In this document: positions 9,948 through 27,444 of the stretch, one piece after another
Layout: every line of letters begins with the position of its first letter
How positions within the stretch are numbered: position 1 is the first letter of the stretch
From: Balanoglossus misakiensis
Taxonomy: Eukaryota > Animalia > Hemichordata
Direction of reading: 5' to 3'
Assembly (NCBI GenBank): GCA_040954595.2
Contig: CM082592.2
Span: forward strand, 6,489,531 to 6,553,530
DNA length: 64,000 nucleotides
The notes under the pieces: generated by a model
The model's database searches: none
What the model saw: only the letters and a program-made list of their open reading frames with translations
What the model was told of the DNA's origin: nothing
Program-made: the position numbers and the translations under genes

Positions 9948-13808
<3,861 letters not shown>

Positions 13809-14106: not shown

Positions 14107-14931
14107 CTATAGCTTTTTGCTTGCCATTCTCTCGTACATGGGCATGCAATCGTCTGCAAACTGTACCAGCTTCTCCGGGAGGTTTGTCAAGTCGATGTCG
14201 GTGTCAGACGATGGGTGGAAACAAGAACTGTCTATTGCCTTTTTGAAAAACAGCTTAGTGTATTCGGAGGTCTTCATGGAAAGTGGGAAATGGTCTATGT
14301 TTCCCGGTTCCCACTTGACAAACGATTCACAGAATGGCAGCCCTGTCGCTTTACAGTACTTCTCTAAAGTCTCCCTGGGCGAATTGGCCAAATCTGCCGA
14401 GTCAACGACGATTGGGGGCGCTTCCAATTCCTCGGTGACATATCTATACAGGTTGAATAAACTTTCGTAACCAGATGTGTTAATGCACCACGAAATGGCT
14501 GCATCCGTGTCCACTGACGGCGTGGACATCGTGATGTTATTAGTACATGTAATCCGGAACGAGGAAAGTATGGAGGCCCTGGGATTGCGAATAAGGAAAG
14601 TGTTGACGTACCCCCCTGGAATGTACTGGTAGCGACCCCTGCCCCCCGAAAAGTTATCCTTTACGAAAACGGCCGTTTTCCCCGGGAATGGTTGTTCCAG
14701 CATCTTCTGCACGTCCACATACTTGTACCCAGGTACGGGTGGTTCTTGGCGCAAAGTCGTCTGGATGTGTCGTTCTTCGCCGACGCAGTAGGCCATGACA
14801 AAAGGTTCGTGAATGACATGGATGTTTTTGTCCGACGCGATTGCGAGTTCAAACGCGGTTGATCTCGACCTGGCGTGCGACCACAGGATCACACGAGTTT
14901 GCGGTTGCCATTCGGTTGAACTTGCCGCCAT
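14107..14931 (-). CDS. P-loop sulfotransferase-fold protein (family often annotated 'branched-chain-amino-acid aminotransferase-like' / Sulfotransfer_5), intronless CDS
   Basis: MAASSTEWQPQTRVILWSHARSRSTAFE...HEPF...FVKD...TFLIRNP...PIVVDSADL..P..TL..YC...GLPF....W. The [P/A]RSxST 5'-PSB-like loop and LIRNP 3'-PB-like motif are typical of the sulfotransferase fold. First in-frame ATG is at 14931. Confidence 0.85.
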   Translation of the reverse strand: MAASSTEWQPQTRVILWSHARSRSTAFELAIASDKNIHVIHEPFVMAYCVGEERHIQTTLRQEPPVPGYKYVDVQKMLEQPFPGKTAVFVKDNFSGGRGRYQYIPGGYVNTFLIRNPRASILSSFRITCTNNITMSTPSVDTDAAISWCINTSGYESLFNLYRYVTEELEAPPIVVDSADLANSPRETLEKYCKATGLPFCESFVKWEPGNIDHFPLSMKTSEYTKLFFKKAIDSSCFHPSSDTDIDLTNLPEKLVQFADDCMPMYERMASKKL

Positions 14932-15295
14932 GTTTTGGGTCACAGCGTCGGGGTAGCTGAGAAATAAACCGAGGAATCTTATCTCCCTAGGCGTAACGTG
15001 TTGTCGCGACCCTGACCCATTTGTCTGGCTCACTCGGGGAGTTCACCGGCCTTGTCCTCGTTTGCCAGTATAATCATGTCTGTCATTGGCTAAATTACAT
15101 GTATCATGGAGGTACCTCCATGCATGTATCAAGTGTTCTAATTCGTGGGGATATATTTCTCTCGTGTGAGTATTCTAAAATTAAAAAAAAAATACTTATC
15201 GTTTGCAATGTATAATATGCGGGTAGGGCAAGGGGGTGTATTGCACATATGTATATAGGTAATAATAGTATTCATCGTGCGACGGTAGCTCTGCG

Positions 15296-15904: not shown

Positions 15905-16726
15905 TTATAGCTTTTTAATGATCATTTCCTCGTACAGCGGAGTGTATTCGTCAATACAGTGTCTCAGTTTTTCGGGCAATTCTGACAAATTCACGTCTGA
16001 GTCAGGCGAGGGCTGGAAACAAGAACTCTTCAAGGCCCTGTCGTAAAACAATTTTGCAAACTCGGAAGACTTCATAAAATCGGGGAAATGGTCGATGTTT
16101 CCCGCTTCCCAGTTCAGAAAGGTTTCTTTGAATGGCAACCCCGTCAGCTTGCAGTACTTCTGTAGCGTGTCTTCGGGCGAATTGGCCAAATCCTGTGAGT
16201 CTATCACGATAGCCGGCTGCTGGAGTACCTCGGTTACGTACTTGTATAGTTCAAAGATGGGCGCCATGTCGCAGAGATCCACGCAAAACTCAACCAAAGT
16301 ATCTGGGTCGACCCCGCGCTGCCTATGCTTAGTTTGGACGCATCTGAACGACGAAAGCACCGTCGCTTTCGGATTGCGGACCATAAATGTGTGTATGTAC
16401 CCGCGTGGCATATATTTGTAACGATCTCTGCCTCCCAAACACTTGGCGCTGTCTTTGACGAATATGGCCACTTTTCCAGGGTAGTCGTTTTCCAGCATCG
16501 CCTGCATGTCCCTATATCGATAACCTGGCAACGGGGGAGTGGTGATGGATTCCACGTGACACAGTCGTTCCTCTCCTTCATAGTAAGCCATCGCGAATGG
16601 TTCGTGGACGACATGGATATTCTTATCAGAAGCTATGGCTAGCTCCAGCACCGTTGATCTTGATCTTGGGTGGACCCACAGAATAACGCGAGTTGACGGC
16701 AGAAATATAGCCACATTTTCAGACAT
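15905..16726 (-). CDS. Second intact sulfotransferase-fold protein, 273 aa, intronless CDS
   Basis: TRVILWVHPRSRSTVLE...HEPF...FVKD...FMVRNP...VIDSQDLANSP...YC..TGLPF...W; paralogue of 14107-14931. Confidence 0.87.
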   Translation of the reverse strand: MSENVAIFLPSTRVILWVHPRSRSTVLELAIASDKNIHVVHEPFAMAYYEGEERLCHVESITTPPLPGYRYRDMQAMLENDYPGKVAIFVKDSAKCLGGRDRYKYMPRGYIHTFMVRNPKATVLSSFRCVQTKHRQRGVDPDTLVEFCVDLCDMAPIFELYKYVTEVLQQPAIVIDSQDLANSPEDTLQKYCKLTGLPFKETFLNWEAGNIDHFPDFMKSSEFAKLFYDRALKSSCFQPSPDSDVNLSELPEKLRHCIDEYTPLYEEMIIKKL

Positions 16727-17570
16727 TTTAGAGTCTCAGATTGAGTGGCTGGTGTGGGGCACTTTACAAGCTGTCAAGGCAAGATGATTTTAGCTTGGGG
16801 CTGGTCGGTTGTCGGTGGGTGATTGATTTAGGCACCCATTTCCACATGACCAAAAGGTCACATTACCTTCTCCTCCCCAAGCCCCCCCCCCTCCAATGAT
16901 CACCTCCTCTATGCGATAACAATGTTTAAACATTACTGCATAAAATGAATGCACCATATGTTAAAAGTTCTCGCACAGTTGCAAGACCTTATTTGGGCCA
17001 TTAGGTTTTACGGATGAGATGATGTTTTATACGTACCACAGTATACATATAGCCATAAATTACCAGTAGTAGTATACGATGAATGAAATTGGTATTTGGG
17101 GTGAATGACGCCGTTCTGTACTTCTATGGGCAGATCAACTTCACAAAGGTCATTAAGTAGATTTATGGTCTACATAGTACATTTACTCAATAAATGTGTC
17201 GTAACAACATTCTTTTTCGACCACTCGAAAGAAGTAAACAACATCAGCAAGGTATAAGTAGTTACTCCCCGCAGTCACGTACTCCACAAACCGTGAGTAA
17301 AGTACAACCTATAGAGGGCGCACAGAGTTTGACCCCAAGGTTTGACCTCATTCACCTTATTTGACCCCTGTCATGTGATCGCCGAACACCGGCGACCGTG
17401 TGTGTGTGGTACCGAAGTCCAGAAACTTATAGGTTATCAATGTTATTTGGCATGATCGGCCAATGCGGTCGATTATATGTCCTCTCGCACCTTTAGCGGG
17501 TAAATTGGTAGACTTTGTTCGATTCACCGGATGCAGTAGAAGTTTTTCGCTTTCTGGACACTGGTACAAA

Positions 17571-20500
17571 ATGGCGTCGCCCCCCTCCAAGCAGTTGAAG
17601 CGTGTTGGGATTCTCGGCGGAACACATGGGAACGAGCTATCGGGCGTGTACCTTGTGAAGAAGTGGCTGAAGGACAAGACGCCGGTGACGAGAAGCACGT
17701 TTGAAACCACGGTTTGCATCAGTAATCCCCGCGCAGTGGAAAAATGTGTTCGCTACATAGATACTGATCTGAACCGAGTGTTCACGGAGGAAAATCTAAG
17801 GTGAGAGGAACTTGGAACATCTGGCAAACTAGGATCTGCCATACCATAAACTGCGTAATGAGCTGTGTATGTTTGCACGTGATGTGATGCGTGAATTGTA
17901 TCATAGACACTGAGGTCGACTGCAGTGATCTGTGGTGATACCTCCTTGGGTGAATGAAGGTGGGCTAACTTTTTAAAGTGGACGACCCAAAGCTGTCGTA
18001 CGCCCATGGTAACTTTGAGCAACGTCCCTCTATTGAGATCCTTGTGGTAGTGTGTCCACTAGACCATAGGGAGTGCAAACACAACCGCTTTTCAGACCTA
18101 ATGTATGGAAGTTAGAAGTACATCCGAATTGGCATACTCATTGCAACATCTACATAATTATATTATTTTAATCGGAATGTGAGAATTGTGTTAGACCTGC
18201 ACCAGGTCTGATCCAGCAGACTGCTGCAGGTCTGTGTCCATATCGCTGCACATGACCTGTTGGTCAGACAGGCACCAGACCTGGTGAACTTTTTGTTGTG
18301 GGTGAGACTGTTTGATCAATTTGCTCATGGATAATTAATTTTCTGTTTCTTGCATAGGTCGGAGTCGACAAGTAATTTGTATGAATTAAATCGAGGCAAA
18401 GAGCTGAACGCAATCTTTGGACCAAAACACTCCACAGAAGCCTATGACTTTCTCATGGACTTCCATAACACAACGTCCAACATGCTTAATTCTCTCATGA
18501 TTCACGACACGAGAGACCCGCTAGTGCTGCAGTTAGTGCACTATGTCTCAGGAAACCTAAAACAATTCTCAAACTTTGTCTTTATAACGGGGAACGCGTA
18601 TCAAACGACCCGAACTGTCGCCACGCATGGGTTAGGTAAGTGTTGATCACCTCAGGCCTGACAGGTTGATACGCATGCTGTTGTAGGTTTTCTGTAGAGT
18701 AGTTAGCTGGTAGAGCGTCACATTGCAAATAATATTTGTAGACACTCTTACACGTAGTTTTGTGTTCATGAAAGATGTTTTGCTGTGCTACCCACCGCTT
18801 CCCAGAGTCGCAATCAAACTCTGTCATTACCCCCCTTGCTCCCTAACATTGCCATTTGAGGTTCCTTGACATGGGAATGAAAACACACACAATGGTCCAA
18901 AGATTTCATTCAGTTCTGGATTTGTGTCCGTTGATATTTCTGTGTATGAAAGACATCGTGAATCAAGTGATTATATTAATGCAGTCACTGAATGTAATGG
19001 TAAACAAAAATCCAAATATAATACAATAACAGAAGTTGGTCTTTACTTTGTGTAGATTGGCCAAAGATTCCAACATTTATGAACTGACTCGAATTAGTGA
19101 ACTGAATGAAATGTTTGGACCTGGAGCCACCGAACGGTATGATGTCTTGATTGACATGCATAATACGACAGCTGATGTGCGAGACTGCCTGATCTTCAGC
19201 GGCAGCCCCGATGAAGTTGATCTGCACCTGGTCAGCTACATGGCTGAGAGAGCGGGACAGGAGAGGCTGAAAGCCCTTTTAGTGCCTTGTAGTGGAGCTG
19301 TTTGCTCTTTAGGCAAACACATCCTTGGTGAGTCTAGACACAAGTTGTGTGGGGAGTTGTTACACTGGGATGTCGTGCCTTAGTCATTGGCGTGATATCG
19401 CAGTGTAACAACTCCCATGCGACTGTGAGTCTAGATGCTAAGAACACTGGGCTAGCCCATCAAGAAGTATTTCTCAGCAAGTCTTTTGAAAACTGTTGCT
19501 TAAGAATATCAGCTTTGGAGTATACTGGCGTATAATTAATAAATATGGAAATTGTTTTAATACTGCAGATATTAATAAAAACTTGGGGGTGTGTACATTT
19601 ACATGAAAAAGTTGTATGTATTATGTCCCCTCATTGGTCCAAAGATTGTCTTCAGATCTCTATCTACCGTCCAATCATACACTGGCTTTAGTGTCCACTC
19701 AATCTCATCATCTTCAGAGTTCATCACAAAGTTTTCAAAGGCAAATTTCCATAAGATCACTCATTCCTTAAAGGTGTGAGTGTGCGTGTTTTATTTCTAT
19801 AGTAACAAGAGTGTTCAGATCGGACACTGAGCTGTAAGTGAATCATGGAACCAAAATCATAAATTTATTCTTGTTCTTGTTGCTCACCTAGGCCAGAGAC
19901 GGAGGGTGTGGCCACTTCCAATATCCCCTATGAAATAGCAATTGCCAGGGAACTAGACGCAGTCTTTGGACCAATGGGAGAAAGCAGTCGCACTGATTTC
20001 ATGTTAGACTTGCACAACACCACGTCGTGCATGAGTAACTGCGTAATTTTAGAGCGCGAGGACGACCTCCTCACAACGCACATGGCCAGCTATTTGCTGC
20101 AGTTTTTGCCGTGCCCGCTCTTCCTGAAACATAACAAGCCCGAGGAAGGTTTCCGGCTAGTGGCAACTGTTAATCTCGCAAAGCATGGCATCAGTAAGTG
20201 TCTGGTGAGCTTGGTGTGGGGCGTCCCAGTGTTTAATTGCTACATGTCCGCGCCCCCTGGATATGTTAAAGGTCATAGGTTAAAGGGTCACAGTTCATAG
20301 GACAAGCAGTGTATGCACAGGGGTGCGTTCGACGAACGAAGCGTTCGGTAACGTTCGGAAACGTTTTCATGTCGAACGATCTTTTGTCATTGTTTTTCGC
20401 GAACGTTTTGTAACAATGGAAGGCGTAAGACGGAGGTGACTCGCGGCGAACAACTCATTAATTCAAAATGGCGGACCTGTAAGCCGAAGTACGACTCGCA

Positions 20501-22247
20501 GGGCATATTTTCGAAGAAGTAGCAGAATATTTGTCGATTTAGGTAGTGATAGTTTTACCAAGCCGAAGCTTGTATTTTTTCTCAATCAATAAACCAATTC
20601 ACATGGATTGTGCCGCTACTGTCTTGTGTAAAACGGTTTAAAAGTGGTATGCACTTCCGGAATCATGTCCTTGTATGTGCACCGGGACGTTCTTGCTGAC
20701 GGCCGCTGTCTCTGAAAAGCCAAAGGTCATTGACGGCGCCCTCTTGTGAAAGGCAAGCTTATCGTTCGACGAAGTACAAAAGCGCCCGGCGCAAGCATTC
20801 ACAAAACGCTTTGTGCGTCGAACGCACCCCAGTTGTCCACCTGCACCAAGCACAACTCTGACTCATGCTTTTGTTGAGATGCCTACTCGGTACATCTTGA
20901 CCAGCTTGCACTCTGACCTCTGACCTCATGAAAAGGTTACTGGTATTTAAAGCTTTTGGTGTTTTTTTTCTCTATAAATAAAAATGTGAAGTCGGTTGGT
21001 GCACGTTGTCAAAATTTTTACCGATTCTGTACTGACCTTTTTATTTTTACCAGCTTCATCATATTTCTTTCTGTTTTGCCATCTGATCAAAGGTATCGAA
21101 TTAGGTCCACAAGCTCACGGCACTCTGGTAGCCGAGGTCTACCAGAGAATGGAGGAAATTACCCATCATGCACTGGATTTCATTGAGAAGTTCAACAAAG
21201 GTGAAGTGAAGTACCCAGCATACCTCAGCACACATTTATCTCAAAAGTTATAGATAGAAAGTCCTCGTAACTAATGGATTAAATATGCTCTGTGTGTGTG
21301 TATGTCAGTGCGTTTGTCCACTCAGAGCCAAAACTCGGACATCCTGGACTGATTTCTTTATTTTGATATACAATCCAATATGGCCACTCGGCGGCCATTT
21401 TGTATCCACAGCCATTATTCATTCCTACCTGAACATGTTCCATTCAAGCTCAAGGTATAATGAGTGTACCATGGCGTACATTGTATTTATGCACATGAAT
21501 TTGTGTCACAATATGATCCAATATGGCTGCTGGGCGGCCATTTTCTTACAAGTTTGTCATCATAATCTTGAATTTCAGGCCATGAATTTGCCCCGTGTAC
21601 CATAGAAGCTCATCGGATACTCGAGAAAGTGGATTTTCCACGTGATGAGGATGGAGAGTTGACTGCCATGATTCATCCAAAGTTTCAGGTCACTAGACTT
21701 TCCCTTTCAACTTTATTTCTCACAGATATTGAAGAATACACCCTTTTCAAAAGTCTAGCGCCCTCAAGCGAGACCAATTGGGAAATCCCCTTGATGTGAT
21801 TGGTCGATTTCCCCATTGGCCTCGCTTTGAGTTCAAATTCATGATGGCTGCATGAGGATGTTTATGTTGAATTTTATGCAGATAATTTTTTGATGTACTT
21901 GCAATGCTGTAAACCCAGATTATTTTGTTCTTTGAAATCTTATCGCAAGAATATTTTCATTTGTGTCACTTTGTGTGTCATTCTTCAAATTATATTCATC
22001 TTGTTCCATCTGCTGTCAGTGTGAAGTAAAAAGCTTTTCCTCTTGTTTCTAGAACAAAGACTGGCACCCCTTGAATCCGGGTGATCCCATCTTCTTGACC
22101 TTCCAAGGGGAAACCGTCACCTACAAAGGCGACAAGACCGTCTACCCGGCATTCATTAACGAGGCTTCGTACTACGAGAAAGGCCTCGCATTCTGGGCCA
22201 TGGAGAAGGTGCAACTCACTGCTCCGAAGTTGAAACTCCAAGAATAA
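17571..22247 (+). CDS. ASPA: Aspartoacylase / aminoacylase-3 family Zn hydrolase with three alternative exon-2 variants
   Basis: Exon 1 17571-17800 ([30 protein letters not shown]); alternative exon 2a 18358-18635, 2b 19056-19327, 2c 19892-20193 (each with DxHNTT); exon 3 21093-21200 (IELGPQ); exon 4 21579-21688 ([17 protein letters not shown]); exon 5 22053-22247 ([12 protein letters not shown]...[13 protein letters not shown]). All introns are GT-AG. Confidence 0.93.
18358..18635 (+). other. ASPA alternative exon 2a (278 nt)
   Basis: tgcatag| ... |gtaagt; encodes [16 protein letters not shown]...DFHNTTSNM...[13 protein letters not shown]. Confidence 0.9.
18893..18917 (+). promoter_or_regulatory. 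Intronic antisense element A (candidate splicing RNA-pairing element)
   Basis: TGGTCCAAAGATTTCATTCAGTTCT is complementary to exon 2b 19099-19121 (22 of 23 Watson-Crick) and to exon 2a 18400-18424 (22 Watson-Crick + 1 GU of 25). Confidence 0.7.
19056..19327 (+). other. ASPA alternative exon 2b (272 nt)
   Basis: tgtgtag| ... |gtgagt; encodes [16 protein letters not shown]...DMHNTTADV...[12 protein letters not shown]. Confidence 0.88.
19332..19436 (+). other. Long RNA hairpin directly behind the exon 2b donor site
   Basis: GGGAGTTGTTACACTG pairs perfectly with CAGTGTAACAACTCCC; the stem extends in both directions with several G-U pairs. Confidence 0.7.
19630..19659 (+). promoter_or_regulatory. 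Intronic antisense element B (candidate splicing RNA-pairing element)
   Basis: CTCATTGGTCCAAAGATTGTCTTCAGATCT is complementary to exon 2c 19960-19978 (19 contiguous pairs, 2 GU) and to exon 2a 18400-18424 (22 Watson-Crick + 1 GU of 25). Confidence 0.7.
19892..20193 (+). other. ASPA alternative exon 2c (302 nt)
   Basis: cacctag| ... |gtaagt; encodes [19 protein letters not shown]...DLHNTTSCM...[13 protein letters not shown]. Confidence 0.9.
20321..20829. mobile_element. MITE, PIF/Harbinger-like
   Basis: Terminal inverted repeats GGGTGCGTTCGACG / CGTCGAACGCACCC, flanked by the 3-bp duplication CAG (20318-20320, 20830-20832); no credible coding capacity. Confidence 0.8.
21767..21827. repeat. 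Short imperfect inverted repeat in ASPA intron 4
   Basis: AAGCGAGACCAATTGGGAAATC ... GATTTCCCCATTGGCCTCGCTT. Confidence 0.55.
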
Positions 22248-23786
22248 AGAGACTGATCGCTTTTACAGGCTGTAGTTACATGTAGTAACATACAATTTTA
22301 GATTTACAGACATATTTCTTGAGGAACTAAGGGTCGTTCTGGTTTGTTTTTATTTGTCCCATGTGAGAAGTCATTTTCGTTGCTGTACCTCCATATAAAG
22401 CCATGTGGTCATCACAGCTGGACTTGCTCCACAGCTGTAAAACGGGACATTTTCACAGCAGGAATTTTCGCGATATCAACAGAGGCAACTTTTTCGCGAC
22501 GATTAATTTTCGCGTTCTCCATTGCACACATTGTTCTTTCTCGACTGCATATTTTTGCGTTTTTTTGTAGCTCTCGCGAAGTTAATTAATTCAACTTGAT
22601 GGTGAATGAAATGAGATAACCCTTTTATAATGAATTGTCGGTTTCCCTACTGTTTACATTGCTGCTTTGTCACCGAAAATGGGTGTGCCCAGGGTTAATA
22701 TCAATGAAAACAGCCAAGATAACTGAAAAATAATAATTTTAACTGCTTTCCCAGAGAGTGCTGCATTTTACATGGAATGTGCCTTGTGCTAATTTATGAC
22801 ATCAGCGTTTTCCTTCGAGTTGTAAAATCGTATCGTCAGAATTGTTGCTGTAACATCTAATGAAATAAAAAAGATGATCAAATCACACAAACCAAGATGT
22901 CACCTTTTTTTCTGTATTATACCTTTACATGATGTAGGTCGCGATCTGAAAATTGATAATCTCAAATGCCACAGGTCAATCAAAAATGGCCACACACCCC
23001 ACAATACATCCCCGGGGTTGCACGTAACAAATGAGCATAAAAGGAAGCAATTTATTCAATTTTTAATTCTTTGCGAATGTACAGATACTGGTATCAAACT
23101 TTAAACGAATATGTTCTAATCTCTGTCATATTAACATTCCCAGAAAAATACCATCTTTGAAAGACGAGTAACAGTCCATTTCTTCTCGATTTAAAATTCA
23201 TCTTACATTATTTACAAAAACCATTGAGATCTAGAAAATTACAGTCACTTCATGCATGAAGTTTGCATCTTATGAAGAGGTCAAAAAGATGATTCACTGA
23301 GATACAGTCTGTTCAGTCAATGAGATGTAGCCCACTTCGACAAGAAACTGCTGTTCCCACAATTCTTGTAAGAATAAAATATTTCATTCAAAAGTAGATT
23401 TTACCACAGGTAAACACAATGATTTTACATTGTTTGTGTATTAATTGACAATTTTTAAGCCTATAATTAATACAGAAGTCACACCAGCACTTCAATGGTT
23501 GGTATACATAGCAAACAAGTTACAACACTTTCATATCAACAAAGAAGTGAAACATTTGTAGTTTCAGTGTCTTTCTTTGTGCGATGCAGTGGCGTTGTGT
23601 ATCAACTCGTGGTCAGTATAAACTGCAATAGTCACACACTTTGACAGTTGGAGAATTCAGCATAAACACGTAGCAAGACTCAGTTGGCAAACAGAGACAT
23701 TCTACTGTTTCGGATATGGATATTGTCTGTAAAAATGTTCCCCTCCTGGTATTGACTTCGCACTCTTGTAGTCCGACATAGTTCGT

Positions 23787-26700
23787 TCACCTCCCGGACA
23801 GCTTCTCGTAGAACAACATGTACGCCTGTGCTGACAAGACTTCCGACCGAGCCACCTTGCGCACAGTGGAGTCGGACGTGTACAGCCACTGGTTGCTGGA
23901 CGGGTTGCCTGGTGGCGTTGGAACTCGACGGTACGTGACGAAGTGACCCGAGTTGGCGTCTCCCATGTGAACGAGTGCAGCGACTAGTCTGTAATTGGAT
24001 TCAACTGACATTTGCCTGAGAGGGGGAGAGAGAGAGAGAGCGAGAGAGAGAGAGAGAGAGGGAGGGAGGGGGAGAGACAGACAGAGAACACATTTTATTC
24101 ACGCTGTTTTCTTCATGTTTGTAAAGTGTACTGGGACTCATAAAAATGTCAAACTTTCATTTCTCGGCTTCAAATTATAGTATTGTACTTTCCCTACTCT
24201 GCTAGCACTTTTGATAGCTCCACTCTGATTGGCACGACAGCTGGTTCTGAATGAACTTTTGACATGGAGCAGCAGACACAACAATGCATGCCTGACATAT
24301 CTTGTGTATTGAAGGTGGTATCTTACCTTTGGAACAAAGATTTTGATACTTCTGTTGTTTTACTCGGTTCAGGCTGGTTGATCCCATCCCGACAGAGGGA
24401 TGACAGTCCCTTCATCATGGGACGGGGCTTCAGTTGGCTGAAGGAACCATTGCAGAAATAGGGGGTGGAAGGCATATCGCTGGAACTGTATATACGAGAC
24501 ACACAAGATCAACAAATGAAACACATAGACAACTTGTTCTGTAGGGGAAAGGGGGAGGGTATTTCCAGATAGCTGCATCACAAATGCGTAAACATTAAAT
24601 TCCACTTATCTCAGGGCCACATTTGTGCAAAGAAGAGTGTGTAATTTCGAAAAAGAAACTGGCCAAATACAAAATAAGAATGTCAGGATCTGTCTCATCG
24701 TCATGGAAACCAAGCTCCTGATCATTCTGAGCCCCCCACCTGTCATCTGTCCTCTTCTCATCTTTCTTTGTGGTGGTTGTCATGACACAGTGATGCGGTG
24801 ATGATTCCACTTTGCCGTTTGCTTGATGTAAATACCGAAACTTGTCCATGTTCAACATCTCCGGAAACTCCACGTAATCCTCTCGTTTCATGGGCATTCC
24901 GTTGGGTAGCCAGATTCTCCGGTTGATGTGTATGGACAGACACTGTGGCAACTGTGGCACAGAAAAAAAAAATGATCGTATCATCACAAAACTTACAAAA
25001 AGATCATCGATCATTCGATTTTGAACAGAAACATGTAAAGGAATCTGTTTCAGTGATTATGAAGGCTCAATATATTCCTAAACCACCCCTCCATACCTTG
25101 CCCAAGTTTAATTGTTTGATAAATGTCGCCTTCGGCTTGATGTTTTCTGTCGTGTGATCCCGTACACCATTTTTGTTCACGGGCAGCAAGTTGTATTTGG
25201 CGAGTAGCTTCGCACATCCCGTGCACTCGACATCCTCAACGATCTCCGACATCACAAAGCGGCGAAGTAAACCCTCGAGGGTCACGTTACCGTAGTGCTT
25301 CGGTGATAAACTCAGTGAGATGCTGTCGAAGTTGTCGTACTTTATCGGACACTGCAAAAAAATAAAAAAATTGGTAAGTTTGCAGATGTTTTTAGTTGAA
25401 GGTGACATGAAATAATGTTAATTACTGAGAATCATTCATGTTAACTCAGTAACTTTAACGTGATATTTTTTTGGCACACCGAATTATTCTGGAGACATGA
25501 AAATCATGTTTCAGCCATGTACTTACTCTGTATCCACACTGTTTGCATGTCAGCTGACTGGCAAGCGATCCTGTGAATGGGTGGTCAATTTTGCTGCCGG
25601 GTAGTTTGAGAAGTGGAATCTCGCAGCGAGTTCTTGCTTTCTCTTGAAAACCATACCTTGCCTGTGAGACAACACAAGCAACGACACTGCAGTCAATTGA
25701 ACATTTTGAGAAAATTTGATAAACGGAGATGACACACAGTTTACCTGCTTTTCTGATGAACTGATAGAAGTTTTGGTTTTACACTATGATACAGAAGACA
25801 AAACTGGCACCAGAATAAGATTTTATTTCAATTTCTGACAATATCTGGGCTACCTGCATCATTTTCAGCATCAGTTTGTACCATTGGCACTTCTTACCTC
25901 CAGTGTAGCCACATCGAATAAAGACGGATGCGCCGGAAACTTCTCCGCTTCCTCCGACAGAGTTGTTGTTAAAACGTGAAACAATTCATGGGCATCCTGG
26001 ATTGTGAGAATGTGATAGGAACATAATTCAGTTTACATTGAAACATGGAATCTAATTATGAGGGACATATGACACCTGGCAACATTATGAATACCGTCAA
26101 CATTGAGAGAGTACAAAATTTTTCTGATCCAATTTTCTATCTTTCTCCACCATTTCTGTCTCACTCTCTCCTACTATCTGTCATTCTCACAATGTTTCTT
26201 GGCATATTTATTTATCTGTTCATTTTTGAGTGTCTATAAGTCATCTCAGTCAATTTTCTTAAGCTTCCGTCATGTCTCCTAGCAACTGTCTGTGTGTCTC
26301 TTCCACTTTTGACCCCCCCCCCCCCCCCTGTGACTTTTCTGTGTATCTGACCTGTTCTTCCCAGGATATCACCCATCTCCTGGCTCTCAATGCCTCCAAC
26401 ACTTCCACAGGGTTGTGTGGGTCTTCTGCATCATCAGTTTGATTGCGCAACACTGAAACATACATAGAGTTGGACGCTGGTTGTTGAGACGCCAACTTTC
26501 AATGATTTTTAAAGTTCACTCTGTGTGCCATATGGTGCATGTGTCAGTGTGTCACAGTGTGTATCACAGTATATGGACAGTGCTGCACATGTACAATCCT
26601 TTATTATAGGTGCTGCGTACTGTACTTGTCATTGTTCACTGTGTCACTGTGTACAAACTTCTTGTTAGGGCTCATACTTACCCTTCATGACTTTGATGAG

Positions 26701-27059
26701 GGGATAGGCCAAATGCTGTGTGTAGTTGCCACTGGAGTGAATATCAATGAAGTCACCCAACCAACTGACAAACGATGGGCATGATGCCAGACTCTGTAGA
26801 ACGGCATTCAGAAAGCATGTGTTGCCCTGGTTGACCAATCCTGAACATCTCCCTGTGGATGAACAAACAGTCATCATCATCATCATCATCATCATCTGAT
26901 CACCCCCCCCCCCCTAATTGTGCATGCATGGAGCAAGTTACCTGTTTTCTTTCTGGTACTTGGCGATTCGGATCCCCATAGCACATATATTCCAGTTAAC
27001 ACTGCTCCTGCGAGGCCGCCAAGTATTCTGATCTCTTTTGATGTAAAATTATACGGCAT
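23787..27059 (-). CDS. USP30: Ubiquitin carboxyl-terminal hydrolase 30 (mitochondrial outer-membrane deubiquitinase)
   Basis: N-terminal TM segment GGLAGAVLTGIYVLWG (27059-26942); Cys box GLVNQGNTCFLNAVLQSL (26852-26682); EEQ|DAHELFHVLT (26452-26352, 25996-25898); ATFIKQLNLGK|LPQCLSIHINR; His box YRLVAALVHMGDANSGHFVTYRR...WLYTSDSTV...AYMLFYE (about 24015-23787). Some internal exon boundaries are approximate. Confidence 0.93.
24017..24060. repeat. (GA)n tract forming the polypyrimidine tract of the last USP30 intron
   Basis: Visible repeat adjacent to the minus-strand acceptor. Confidence 0.75.
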
Positions 27060-27444
27060 GATTCTCTGATCAGCTGATGTTAGTGATGATTCGGAGTGTC
27101 TAACTTGACATCATCGGTCTTTCCATGTGATTAATTCTCGACTTCTTGGTCAGAAACCGATTTGCGACATATAACACAACCTCTGTGATTTCCTCTGTGG
27201 TGTAAAATATTTGGATCGTTGTTTCAAACAGACAGGAACAGCAAATCACCCAGCGTCACACACTTTCCTTCTCTTCGGATCGCAATCGCAATGAACATGG
27301 TGACCTCTCAACTTTGACCTCTGACACATTCCGGAAATAAAACCCAGGGATTCCCTGAAGTTGACACCTTCTCACCCTCTTGGCTGACAGCGACAGATCT
27401 TGAACAAACAACGTACAGAATGAAGTTGACATGAAACCAAAACC
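27060..27444. promoter_or_regulatory. Putative bidirectional promoter USP30 / MAPKAPK5
   Basis: Start codons diverge only 385 bp apart; contains an ETS-like CCGGAA near 27331. Confidence 0.6.

Follow-up and report, generated by a model that had tools for sequence, protein, structure and literature searches.

A three-exon mutually exclusive cluster in an acorn-worm aspartoacylase gene and two candidate antisense elements in its inner introns

An aspartoacylase (ASPA) gene of the acorn worm Balanoglossus misakiensis, located in the 64-kb stretch of DNA analysed here (the window), contains three tandem homologous exons, 2a, 2b and 2c, of which the reading frame admits exactly one per mRNA. In addition, one element of about 28 nt is present in each inner intron and is antisense to the same coding stretch of all three exons. 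We lean towards an account in which the reading frame, these two elements (masks M1 and M2) and nonsense-mediated decay (NMD) together would leave one exon per mRNA and provide three likely enzymes. Judging from the encoded pockets, a single gene likely gives rise to three enzymes that differ in substrate preference.

The gene is composed of the following parts:

17463..17570, + strand: upstream in-frame ATG and 36-aa extension, basic and acid-poor, apparently similar to a mitochondrial presequence
17571..17800, + strand: remainder of exon 1, with a second ATG, the HxxE zinc ligands (GGTHGNE) and a phase-2 donor
18358..18635, + strand: exon 2a, 278 nt, ASPA-type pocket with the His116 ligand, Tyr164 and Arg168
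19056..19327, + strand: exon 2b, 272 nt, pocket Ser164/Cys168
19892..20193, + strand: exon 2c, 302 nt, pocket Leu164/Val168
21093..21200, + strand: exon 3, 108 nt, equivalent of catalytic Glu178
21579..21688, + strand: exon 4, 110 nt
22053..22247, + strand: exon 5, C-terminal domain with the Tyr288 equivalent (NEASYY), ending with the stop codon

The remainder of exon 1 also encodes the equivalents of Arg63 and Asn70/Arg71, and every intron of the gene is of the GT..AG type. Coordinates, lengths and phases of the three alternative exons agree exactly with those given in an earlier note on this DNA. The three exons share their phases and encode the same protein region: in a per-exon profile search each matches the same part of PF24827 (ASPA catalytic domain), exon 2b with 23.3 bits and hence below the 25-bit cut-off. 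Both the PF04952 hybrid domain and the PF24827 catalytic domain are found, and both are precomputed on the isoforms of Ptychodera flava. The DxHNTT motif is indeed kept in all three exons, which are otherwise strongly diverged with a pairwise identity of only 33-36%, and the zinc ligands His21, Glu24 and His116 as well as catalytic Glu178 are present in all three isoforms. The roles of the zinc-ligand and catalytic residues and of Arg168 are reviewed in PMC10998430, which holds no mention of a role for Tyr164. Neither a fourth exon copy nor a second ASPA gene was detected by tblastn in the 64-kb window.

When all eight inclusion patterns of 2a, 2b and 2c were computed, a full open reading frame resulted in three, all of them single-exon patterns (342, 340 and 350 aa from the upstream ATG for the 2a, 2b and 2c isoforms, respectively), as the frame argument of the earlier note had predicted. 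The remaining five patterns run into a premature stop 124-760 nt before the last junction. Two other known causes of exclusivity were ruled out, namely steric exclusion with a donor-to-branch-point distance below 50 nt (the inner introns measure 420 and 564 nt, with AG-free zones of 18 and 51 nt) and U2/U12 incompatibility (all donors are GTRAGT-like).

The exon cluster, for which a search in related genomes had been proposed, was found in P. flava, where RefSeq lists three consecutive isoform models, X1-X3 (XP_070572358-60), of the orthologous gene, which derive from automatic annotation only. X1, X2 and X3 are orthologues of 2c, 2a and 2b, their flanks are identical across the three models, and the exon lengths of 100, 92 and 90 aa are those of B. 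misakiensis. In an exon tree with 14 of 35 inner branches left open and one catshark row skipped, each alternative exon groups with its P. flava orthologue at starred support. These isoform models and the frame logic strongly support mutually exclusive use, and splicing of 2a, 2b and 2c is very probably mutually exclusive. Identity between the two species amounts to 74/92 aa for 2a, 70/100 aa for 2c and 46/90 aa for 2b, the fastest-evolving of the three. The final 15 residues of 2c are all identical, compared with 45/72 in its front part; in 2b, 5 of the final 15 residues are common to both species. Purifying selection was not significant for 2b or 2c (Fisher p 0.07 and 0.31), and neutral change would leave the frame open with a probability of 0.11 and 0.30, respectively.

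Queried with exon 2b alone, a word index gave no match; queried with the 2c region, it gave only P. flava X1 and weak matches (5 of 48 candidates). A metagenome scan yielded one weak locus with 31% identity among 139 stretches, which was set aside, and two representative matches with doubled stretches turned out to be fish gene models devoid of exon clusters. Literature searches found no published account of the P. flava cluster, the pockets or the masks.

Tyr164 of ASPA helps the pocket to recognise the aspartate side of the substrate, and Glu167 of mouse ACY3 is a pocket residue. Counting back from Glu178 gives Tyr and Arg at positions 164 and 168 in 2a, Ser and Cys in 2b, and Leu and Val in 2c, exactly as counted before; the P. 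flava orthologues have T/C in 2b and L/V in 2c. Among 28 hand-picked rows, Tyr164 and Arg168 occur together in 4/4 2a-type rows and in 10/10 other non-ACY3 deuterostome rows, and in none of seven ACY3-type or four 2b/2c rows. The assignment of an ASPA-type pocket to 2a is supported by the 4/4 rows and by the 80% of its residues kept in P. flava, and the 2a isoform probably hydrolyses N-acetylaspartate. The label "ACY3-like" for 2b and 2c is based on the loss of Tyr164 and Arg168 and on a slight phmmer preference for mouse ACY3 (35 vs 31 bits for 2b, 46 vs 38 bits for 2c); trees do not place the two exons. Since position 168 of ACY3 itself varies (D, M or L), loss of the Arg names no substrate. 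From these residues, the 2b and 2c isoforms are probably active with an altered preference, which would be for uncharged, probably hydrophobic or S-conjugated, side chains. That they act on the substrates of ACY3, N-acetyl-aromatic amino acids and mercapturates (PMC11511702, PMC5743706), is a tentative suggestion. AlphaFold models of the P. flava 2a and 2b isoforms (pLDDT 88.9 and 86.9) have ASPA and then ACY3 as top structure matches (TM 0.91-0.96 by target), so that both isoforms are predicted to share the ASPA fold.

The earlier note had ascribed exclusivity to the frame alone; the frame logic was right, but the two antisense intron elements had been overlooked. They and their targets, together with a hairpin at the 2b donor, are:

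18400..18425, + strand: target in exon 2a, complementary to the masks and encoding ELNAIFGP
18890..18917, + strand: mask M1 in the 2a-2b intron, complementary to the target in 2b (22/23), 2a (22/25) and 2c
19097..19121, + strand: target in exon 2b, complementary to the masks
19324..19442, + strand: long hairpin with the 2b donor in its base, -73.2 kcal/mol, z -9.2, 0/200 shuffles
19632..19662, + strand: mask M2 in the 2b-2c intron, complementary to the target in 2a (23/26), 2c and 2b; paralogue of M1
19947..19976, + strand: target in exon 2c, complementary to the masks

Complementarity was assessed in 84 exon-intron comparisons, five of which gave p<0.02; all five pair an alternative exon with an inner intron, in antisense and at one site, and the sixth pair of this kind gave p=0.053. 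When the 1938 windows of the 64 kb are ordered by summed pairing to the three targets, M1 comes first and M2 second; by the 2c target alone M2 ranks 7th, and by the 2b target alone it falls outside the best 8 of 1938. No third mask was found within 17000-23000, where the next best value is -49.9 vs -88.5 and -80.3. M1 and M2 resemble each other although their introns cannot otherwise be aligned (p 0.003 with the masks, 0.75 without), and M1 is a mosaic, one end matching 2b and the other 2a/2c. Outside the target, synonymous sites compared between the exons have reached saturation (28/76 vs 29.5 expected), whereas inside it agreement is raised (10/15 vs 5.6 expected), the exon pairs not being independent. 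As in ATE1 and Dscam, one element is complementary to several paralogous sites; the mask DNA is known from this single genome. A long inverted-exon relic was not supported, the similarity being limited to about 30-45 nt. A weak minus-strand tblastn match at 19581-19718 overlaps M2.

In the predicted free fold of the 1951-nt pre-mRNA, M2:2a and M1:2b are formed with a pair probability of 1.0, so that both masks are engaged and 2c is left unpaired; the same two pairings also appear in four of four further bound or temperature settings. In the fold constrained to leave 2b free, the M2:2c pairing is absent and the state lies 24 kcal/mol above the minimum, and M1:2c is absent from the predictions even where permitted. 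The predicted states are 9-24 kcal/mol apart, and equilibrium folding would give the 2c-free state almost exclusively, although the annotated form in Glandiceps and Saccoglossus is 2a. The 2b donor has an 11-nt direct repeat (19328 and 19425), and three of four Rfam matches, none reaching the gathering score, are the 2b-donor hairpin. The locus contains further inverted repeats.

In the switch that we propose, the reading frame tolerates one copy of the exon carrying one of the zinc ligands and the substrate-side pocket, and M1 and M2 would each base-pair with the ELNxxFGP codons of one exon. Each pairing would hide purine-rich exon sequence, loop one splice site of that exon and presumably repress it. 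Two masks can cover only two of three exons, and therefore one exon would stay free: 2a with M1:2b and M2:2c, 2b with M1:2a and M2:2c, and 2c with M2:2a enclosing M1:2b. The isoform ratio might be set by transcription timing or proteins, and NMD would clear mis-spliced mRNAs. The likely outcome would be one enzyme that hydrolyses N-acetylaspartate (2a) and two that hydrolyse N-acyl amino acids with non-acidic preferences (2b, 2c). That the masks influence exon choice appears reasonably probable. A more far-reaching "N minus 1 mask" switch, in which the masks silence any two of the ancient duplicate exons, free exactly one and so swap the pocket, while the gene performs the jobs that vertebrates divide between ASPA and ACY3, in cytosol and mitochondria by means of its two starts, can be put forward only tentatively.

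It is unlikely that exclusivity is merely apparent, with splicing factors or splice-site strength choosing the exon, NMD destroying wrong mRNAs and M1 and M2 being neutral, recent inverted exon copies. All five wrong patterns are NMD-type targets, other inverted repeats exist at the locus and G-U bias among transition mismatches was null (13 vs 10, p 0.34), all of which would suit this explanation. However, there is one element per inner intron and none elsewhere in 17000-23000, the mosaic M1 is unlike a single recent copy, and M1 and M2 remain similar where their host introns do not. According to PMC5740500, 60% of human clusters of mutually exclusive exons have frame-shifting lengths, yet exon-joining reads occur in only 22% of such frame-shifting clusters. 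Less likely still, the pairings may be real and tune the ratio or activate a neighbouring exon, in the manner of balancers or docking sites, without enforcing exclusivity. The distance of 9-24 kcal/mol between folded states suits a bias, the 2b donor is already covered by the extra hairpin, and in Dscam1 the ratios of exon 6 variants are shifted by "balancer" pairings between intron and exon (PMC12962786); exactly two elements for three exons, sited between exons like R3 of ATE1, argue otherwise, and activating pairings would favour two exons together, which the frame forbids.

Two further explanations concern the exons themselves, and both are improbable. Only 2a, perhaps with 2c, might matter, 2b being of minor use or in decay, with a product of little or no activity. 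In line with this, 2b shows 51% identity between the species vs 87-88% in the constitutive parts, the selection tests were not significant, its donor sits at the base of the -73 kcal/mol hairpin and M1 pairs with 2b in every full-length fold. Yet its length, open frame, DxHNTT motif and splice sites are intact in two species, P. flava has a dedicated 2b RefSeq isoform, and the model of that isoform has an ASPA-like fold. The other explanation treats the likeness of 2b and 2c to ACY3 as descent: the cluster would predate the vertebrates, and ASPA and ACY3 would each have retained one ancestral exon. The phmmer preference for ACY3 is consistent with this, and in AU tests a grouping of 2b, 2c and ACY3 was not rejected (p 0.33), while a duplication after the Saccoglossus split was (p 1e-4). 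An all-hemichordate clade is, however, not rejected either (p 0.47), and the constitutive parts are placed, weakly (84/82), outside ASPA and ACY3. Moreover, ASPA-type and ACY3-type fragments share an internal break position in 57/63 cases, which points to a shared intron that is absent from 2a, 2b and 2c, and protein searches surfaced no comparable isoforms in tunicates, cyclostomes or a crinoid.

The closest parallel to the proposed mask switch is human ATE1, in which, according to PMC7797038, two exclusive exons are separated by an element that can pair with either of two sites, and blocking it leads to double inclusion. Both genes encode enzymes with homologous exclusive exons (7a/7b in ATE1, with R1/R3/R4) and an intronic element complementary to one paralogous site at a time; ATE1 combines two such exons with a single element, whereas the acorn-worm gene has three exons and two predicted elements. 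ATE1 R1 and R4 are intronic and overlap splice sites, whereas the predicted acorn-worm targets lie 40-85 nt inside the coding sequence, so the M1/M2 design would extend the R1/R3/R4 scheme into coding sequence. In Dscam1, long-range pairings likewise compete within a tandem exon cluster, and there is precedent for intron-exon pairing (PMC6071210, PMC12962786 and PMC11802352). Its docking sites, in contrast, flank the cluster and act by activating one exon, and its balancers shift ratios, whereas the acorn-worm elements lie between exons as predicted silencers. Vertebrate ASPA (PDB 2O4H, 2GU2) shares the fold, the zinc ligands, Glu178, the Arg63/Asn70/Arg71/Tyr288 equivalents and, with 2a, Tyr164/Arg168; the human gene has 6 exons, whereas the acorn-worm gene uses 5 for each isoform and differs further by its cluster of exclusive exons and its N-terminal extension. 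Vertebrate ACY3 (PDB 3NH4, 3NFZ) has the same fold and, like 2b and 2c, no Tyr164/Arg168, but is a separate gene with D, M or L at 168 instead of C (2b) or V (2c).

If the masks work, they would constitute a compact 2-kb switch for three-way exclusive splicing with a simple counting rule, place coding sequence under RNA-pairing constraint and supply a new search rule for clusters, namely N-1 antisense exon copies in the inner introns. For enzymology, the gene would provide a natural pocket swap on one scaffold, in the family concerned in Canavan disease, which would isolate the segment that determines aspartate vs other N-acetyl amino acids. It would also permit a clean comparison of exon duplication and gene duplication as paths to the same specialisation.

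The gene start had previously been placed at 17571; this ATG exists as the second one, but the ATG at 17463, 108 nt further upstream in the same frame, had been overlooked. Position -3 is C at the first ATG and A at the second, which also has G at +4. The extension has a pLDDT below 50 in predicted structures and, by its composition, would resemble a mitochondrial presequence. Extensions of 32-36 aa with five to eight R+K and zero or one D+E are found in 4/4 acorn-worm proteins, including those of P. flava, Glandiceps and Saccoglossus.

The three-exon cluster of the acorn-worm ASPA/ACY3-family (aspartoacylase) gene is real, is conserved in the annotation of a second species, and is more structured than the earlier note had seen. 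The coordinates, lengths and splice sites which that note assigned to the alternative exons 2a, 2b and 2c were exact on re-examination:

Exon 1, ends 17800, + strand, phase 2 at its end
Exon 2a, 18358-18635, + strand, 278 nt, AG acceptor, GT donor
Exon 2b, 19056-19327, + strand, 272 nt, AG acceptor, GT donor
Exon 2c, 19892-20193, + strand, 302 nt, AG acceptor, GT donor
Exons 3, 4 and 5, starts 21093, 21579 and 22053, + strand, downstream of 2c

In per-exon domain searches all three alternative exons align to one region of Pfam PF24827, with pairwise identities of 33-36%. The argument that each mRNA must carry exactly one of them was borne out by translation of all eight inclusion patterns: only the three single inclusions read through, and the other five contain a stop codon 124-760 nt upstream of the last junction. 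Such mis-spliced mRNAs would be cleared by NMD. With the sequence GTCACT, the donor of exon 4 (21689-21696, +) is weak; the junction nonetheless agrees with that of Ptychodera flava.

Among the matches listed, exon 1 is closest to three P. flava proteins (96% identity), followed by Glandiceps (89%) and Saccoglossus (84%), which marks the source as an acorn worm near P. flava. The three proteins are RefSeq isoforms (XP_070572358, -59 and -60) with mutually identical flanks and middle parts of 100, 92 and 90 aa, the lengths of 2c, 2a and 2b, respectively. They are predicted models from automatic gene annotation, and RefSeq isoform models of this kind are usually backed by transcript evidence. 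Identity to P. flava is 70% for 2c, 80% for 2a, 51% for 2b and 87-88% for the constitutive parts, and in the exon tree each alternative exon clusters with its P. flava orthologue with starred support. Among the 120 matches listed out of 342, Glandiceps and Saccoglossus are represented solely by a 2a-type protein.

Two antisense elements in the inner introns were overlooked in the earlier account. A repeat finder detected inverted matches linking these introns to all three alternative exons:

M1, 18890-18917, + strand, between 2a and 2b, inverted match to the exons
M2, 19632-19662, + strand, between 2b and 2c, inverted match to the exons

Each is complementary to the codons for ELNxxFGP in 2a, 2b and 2c, located 40-85 nt past the acceptor. 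In 84 exon-intron alignments (300 shuffles), p<0.02 was reached by five, all of an alternative exon with an inner intron and at this target; the sixth such pair gave p 0.053, and four unrelated pairs p 0.03-0.05. By summed pairing to the three targets, M1 and M2 rank first and second among 1938 windows over 64 kb, though not for every exon taken singly. A 12-mer core, picked post hoc, occurs four times versus 0.47 expected, always within element or target sites. Codon choice shared between the exons is raised inside the target (10/15 vs 5.6 expected) and at chance level outside (28/76 vs 29.5). A test for G-U bias in the pairings was null, and a search for target pairing in 17000-23000 revealed no third element. 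M1 is similar to M2, and the surrounding introns are dissimilar. The DNA of M1 and M2 is known from this genome alone.

In the free fold of 18300-20250, M2:2a (25 bp) encloses M1:2b (24 bp) and 2c is left unmasked, an arrangement recurring in all four other fold settings. With alternatives barred, M1:2b plus M2:2c (2a free) costs 9 kcal/mol and M1:2a plus M2:2b (2c free) 21 kcal/mol; a constrained 2b-free state costs 24 kcal/mol, with M2:2c not formed, and barring all element pairing costs 33 kcal/mol at 25 C. M1:2c never formed in the folds run. Each helix is predicted to enclose in a loop a splice site of the exon it pairs with. Two elements would hide two of the three exons and leave one free for splicing. 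Since a third element would silence all exons, the finding of two fits this scheme. Against it stand the costly 2b-free state, the failure of M1:2c to form and the null G-U test; equilibrium folding alone would also yield mostly 2c, and therefore timing or proteins must intervene; in predicted folding of the growing transcript, M1 pairs with 2a first and moves to 2b once this is transcribed. In addition, the 2b donor sits at the base of a hairpin (z -9.2) that may lower the use of 2b in this species. The hairpin (19324-19442, +; about 50 bp) begins at this donor and is flanked by two direct copies of an 11-nt donor sequence, at 19328 and 19425; it could be of the tailed-mirtron type, supply a decoy donor, or stem from a fold-back insertion with target duplication.

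The nearest known system is human ATE1, in which an element between exons 7a and 7b, R3, can pair with either R1 or R4, both intronic and overlapping splice sites, and blocking of R3 leads to double inclusion (PMC7797038). The competing mode of pairing, predicted here from sequence, is alike; the acorn-worm gene differs in the number of its exons (three) and elements (two) and in having targets within coding sequence. Intron-exon pairings in Dscam1 are described as ratio balancers (PMC12962786), and in a model outlined in PMC6071210 competing structures arise through duplication of one stem arm. Among the papers listed by literature searches, with subscription papers and supplements outside their scope, none dealt with this gene and none linked mutually exclusive exons to aspartoacylase.

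All three isoforms have equivalents of the zinc ligands, Glu178, Arg63, Asn70/Arg71 and Tyr288 (human ASPA numbering). The roles of these residues are taken from a review (PMC10998430), which in the part consulted assigns aspartate selectivity to Arg168 and leaves Tyr164 unmentioned. In a survey of 28 hand-picked rows, Tyr164 plus Arg168 are present in 4/4 2a-type rows and 10/10 further deuterostome rows outside the ACY3 type (vertebrate ASPA, lamprey, hagfish, tunicates and crinoid), and in none of the four 2b/2c, three cnidarian and seven ACY3-type rows, two of the latter being unnamed and classed by tree. The pair is thus the widespread deuterostome state, from which 2b, 2c and ACY3 departed. 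In phmmer, 2a scores best against ASPA (64 vs 38 bits), and 2b and 2c against mouse ACY3 (35 vs 31 and 46 vs 38 bits, respectively). The pockets described previously stand for 2a, and for 2b and 2c as far as the missing pair and a small phmmer margin go; the latter two may act on the substrates of ACY3, though this is less likely than not. Between the two species the pocket end is identical at 15/15 residues in 2c, 14/15 in 2a and 5/15 in 2b, and formal selection tests on 2b and 2c gave no significance. Structure predictions for isoforms 2a and 2b of P. flava adopt the ASPA/ACY3 fold, a result towards which the homologue alignment would tend in any case.

The copies are old, as synonymous sites are saturated between them. 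In an exon-only quick tree (25 rows, long branches), the AU test rejects duplication after the split from Saccoglossus (p 1e-4); neither a grouping of all hemichordate exons (p 0.47) nor one of 2b, 2c and ACY3 (p 0.33) is rejected. The constitutive parts are placed, weakly, outside ASPA plus ACY3, and a published tree (PMC6006793) leans towards dating the ASPA/ACY3 split to vertebrates. Convergence, preferred over descent and not demonstrated, is the better reading of the likeness of 2b and 2c to ACY3. Short unnamed ASPA-type and ACY3-type fragments break after a common YIK/YLQ motif, which points to a mid-segment intron common to both vertebrate genes; the next residue is Val in 46/63 and Ala in 11/63, the latter (P0174, P0190, P0194 and eight others) thus having Ala in place of Val at the vertebrate-type internal intron position. 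Exons 2a, 2b and 2c are uninterrupted there, and because this intron is absent, His116 and the pocket loop share one exon. Human ASPA comprises six exons, the acorn-worm gene five per isoform.

A start at the upstream in-frame ATG (17463) lengthens the protein by 36 residues. All four acorn-worm proteins carry a basic, acid-poor extension ahead of the aligned second Met, unstructured in both predicted models, and the start context is weak at the first ATG and strong at the second. Leaky scanning likely yields mitochondrial and cytosolic forms, judging from general features of mitochondrial presequences.

The intron that follows 2c holds a 29-nt inverted repeat (90%; 20317-20345 / 20805-20833) with arms 459 nt apart, probably the ends of a small DNA transposon, and a palindromic element of modest fold (18185-18295, z -2.4) precedes the 2a acceptor. 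The gene is flanked upstream by PLP-dependent decarboxylase exons (11871-13808, +) and, head to head, by two tandem intronless Sulfotransfer_5 ORFs (14107-15042 and 15905-16735, -), and downstream by ubiquitin C-terminal hydrolase exons (23787-27110, -).
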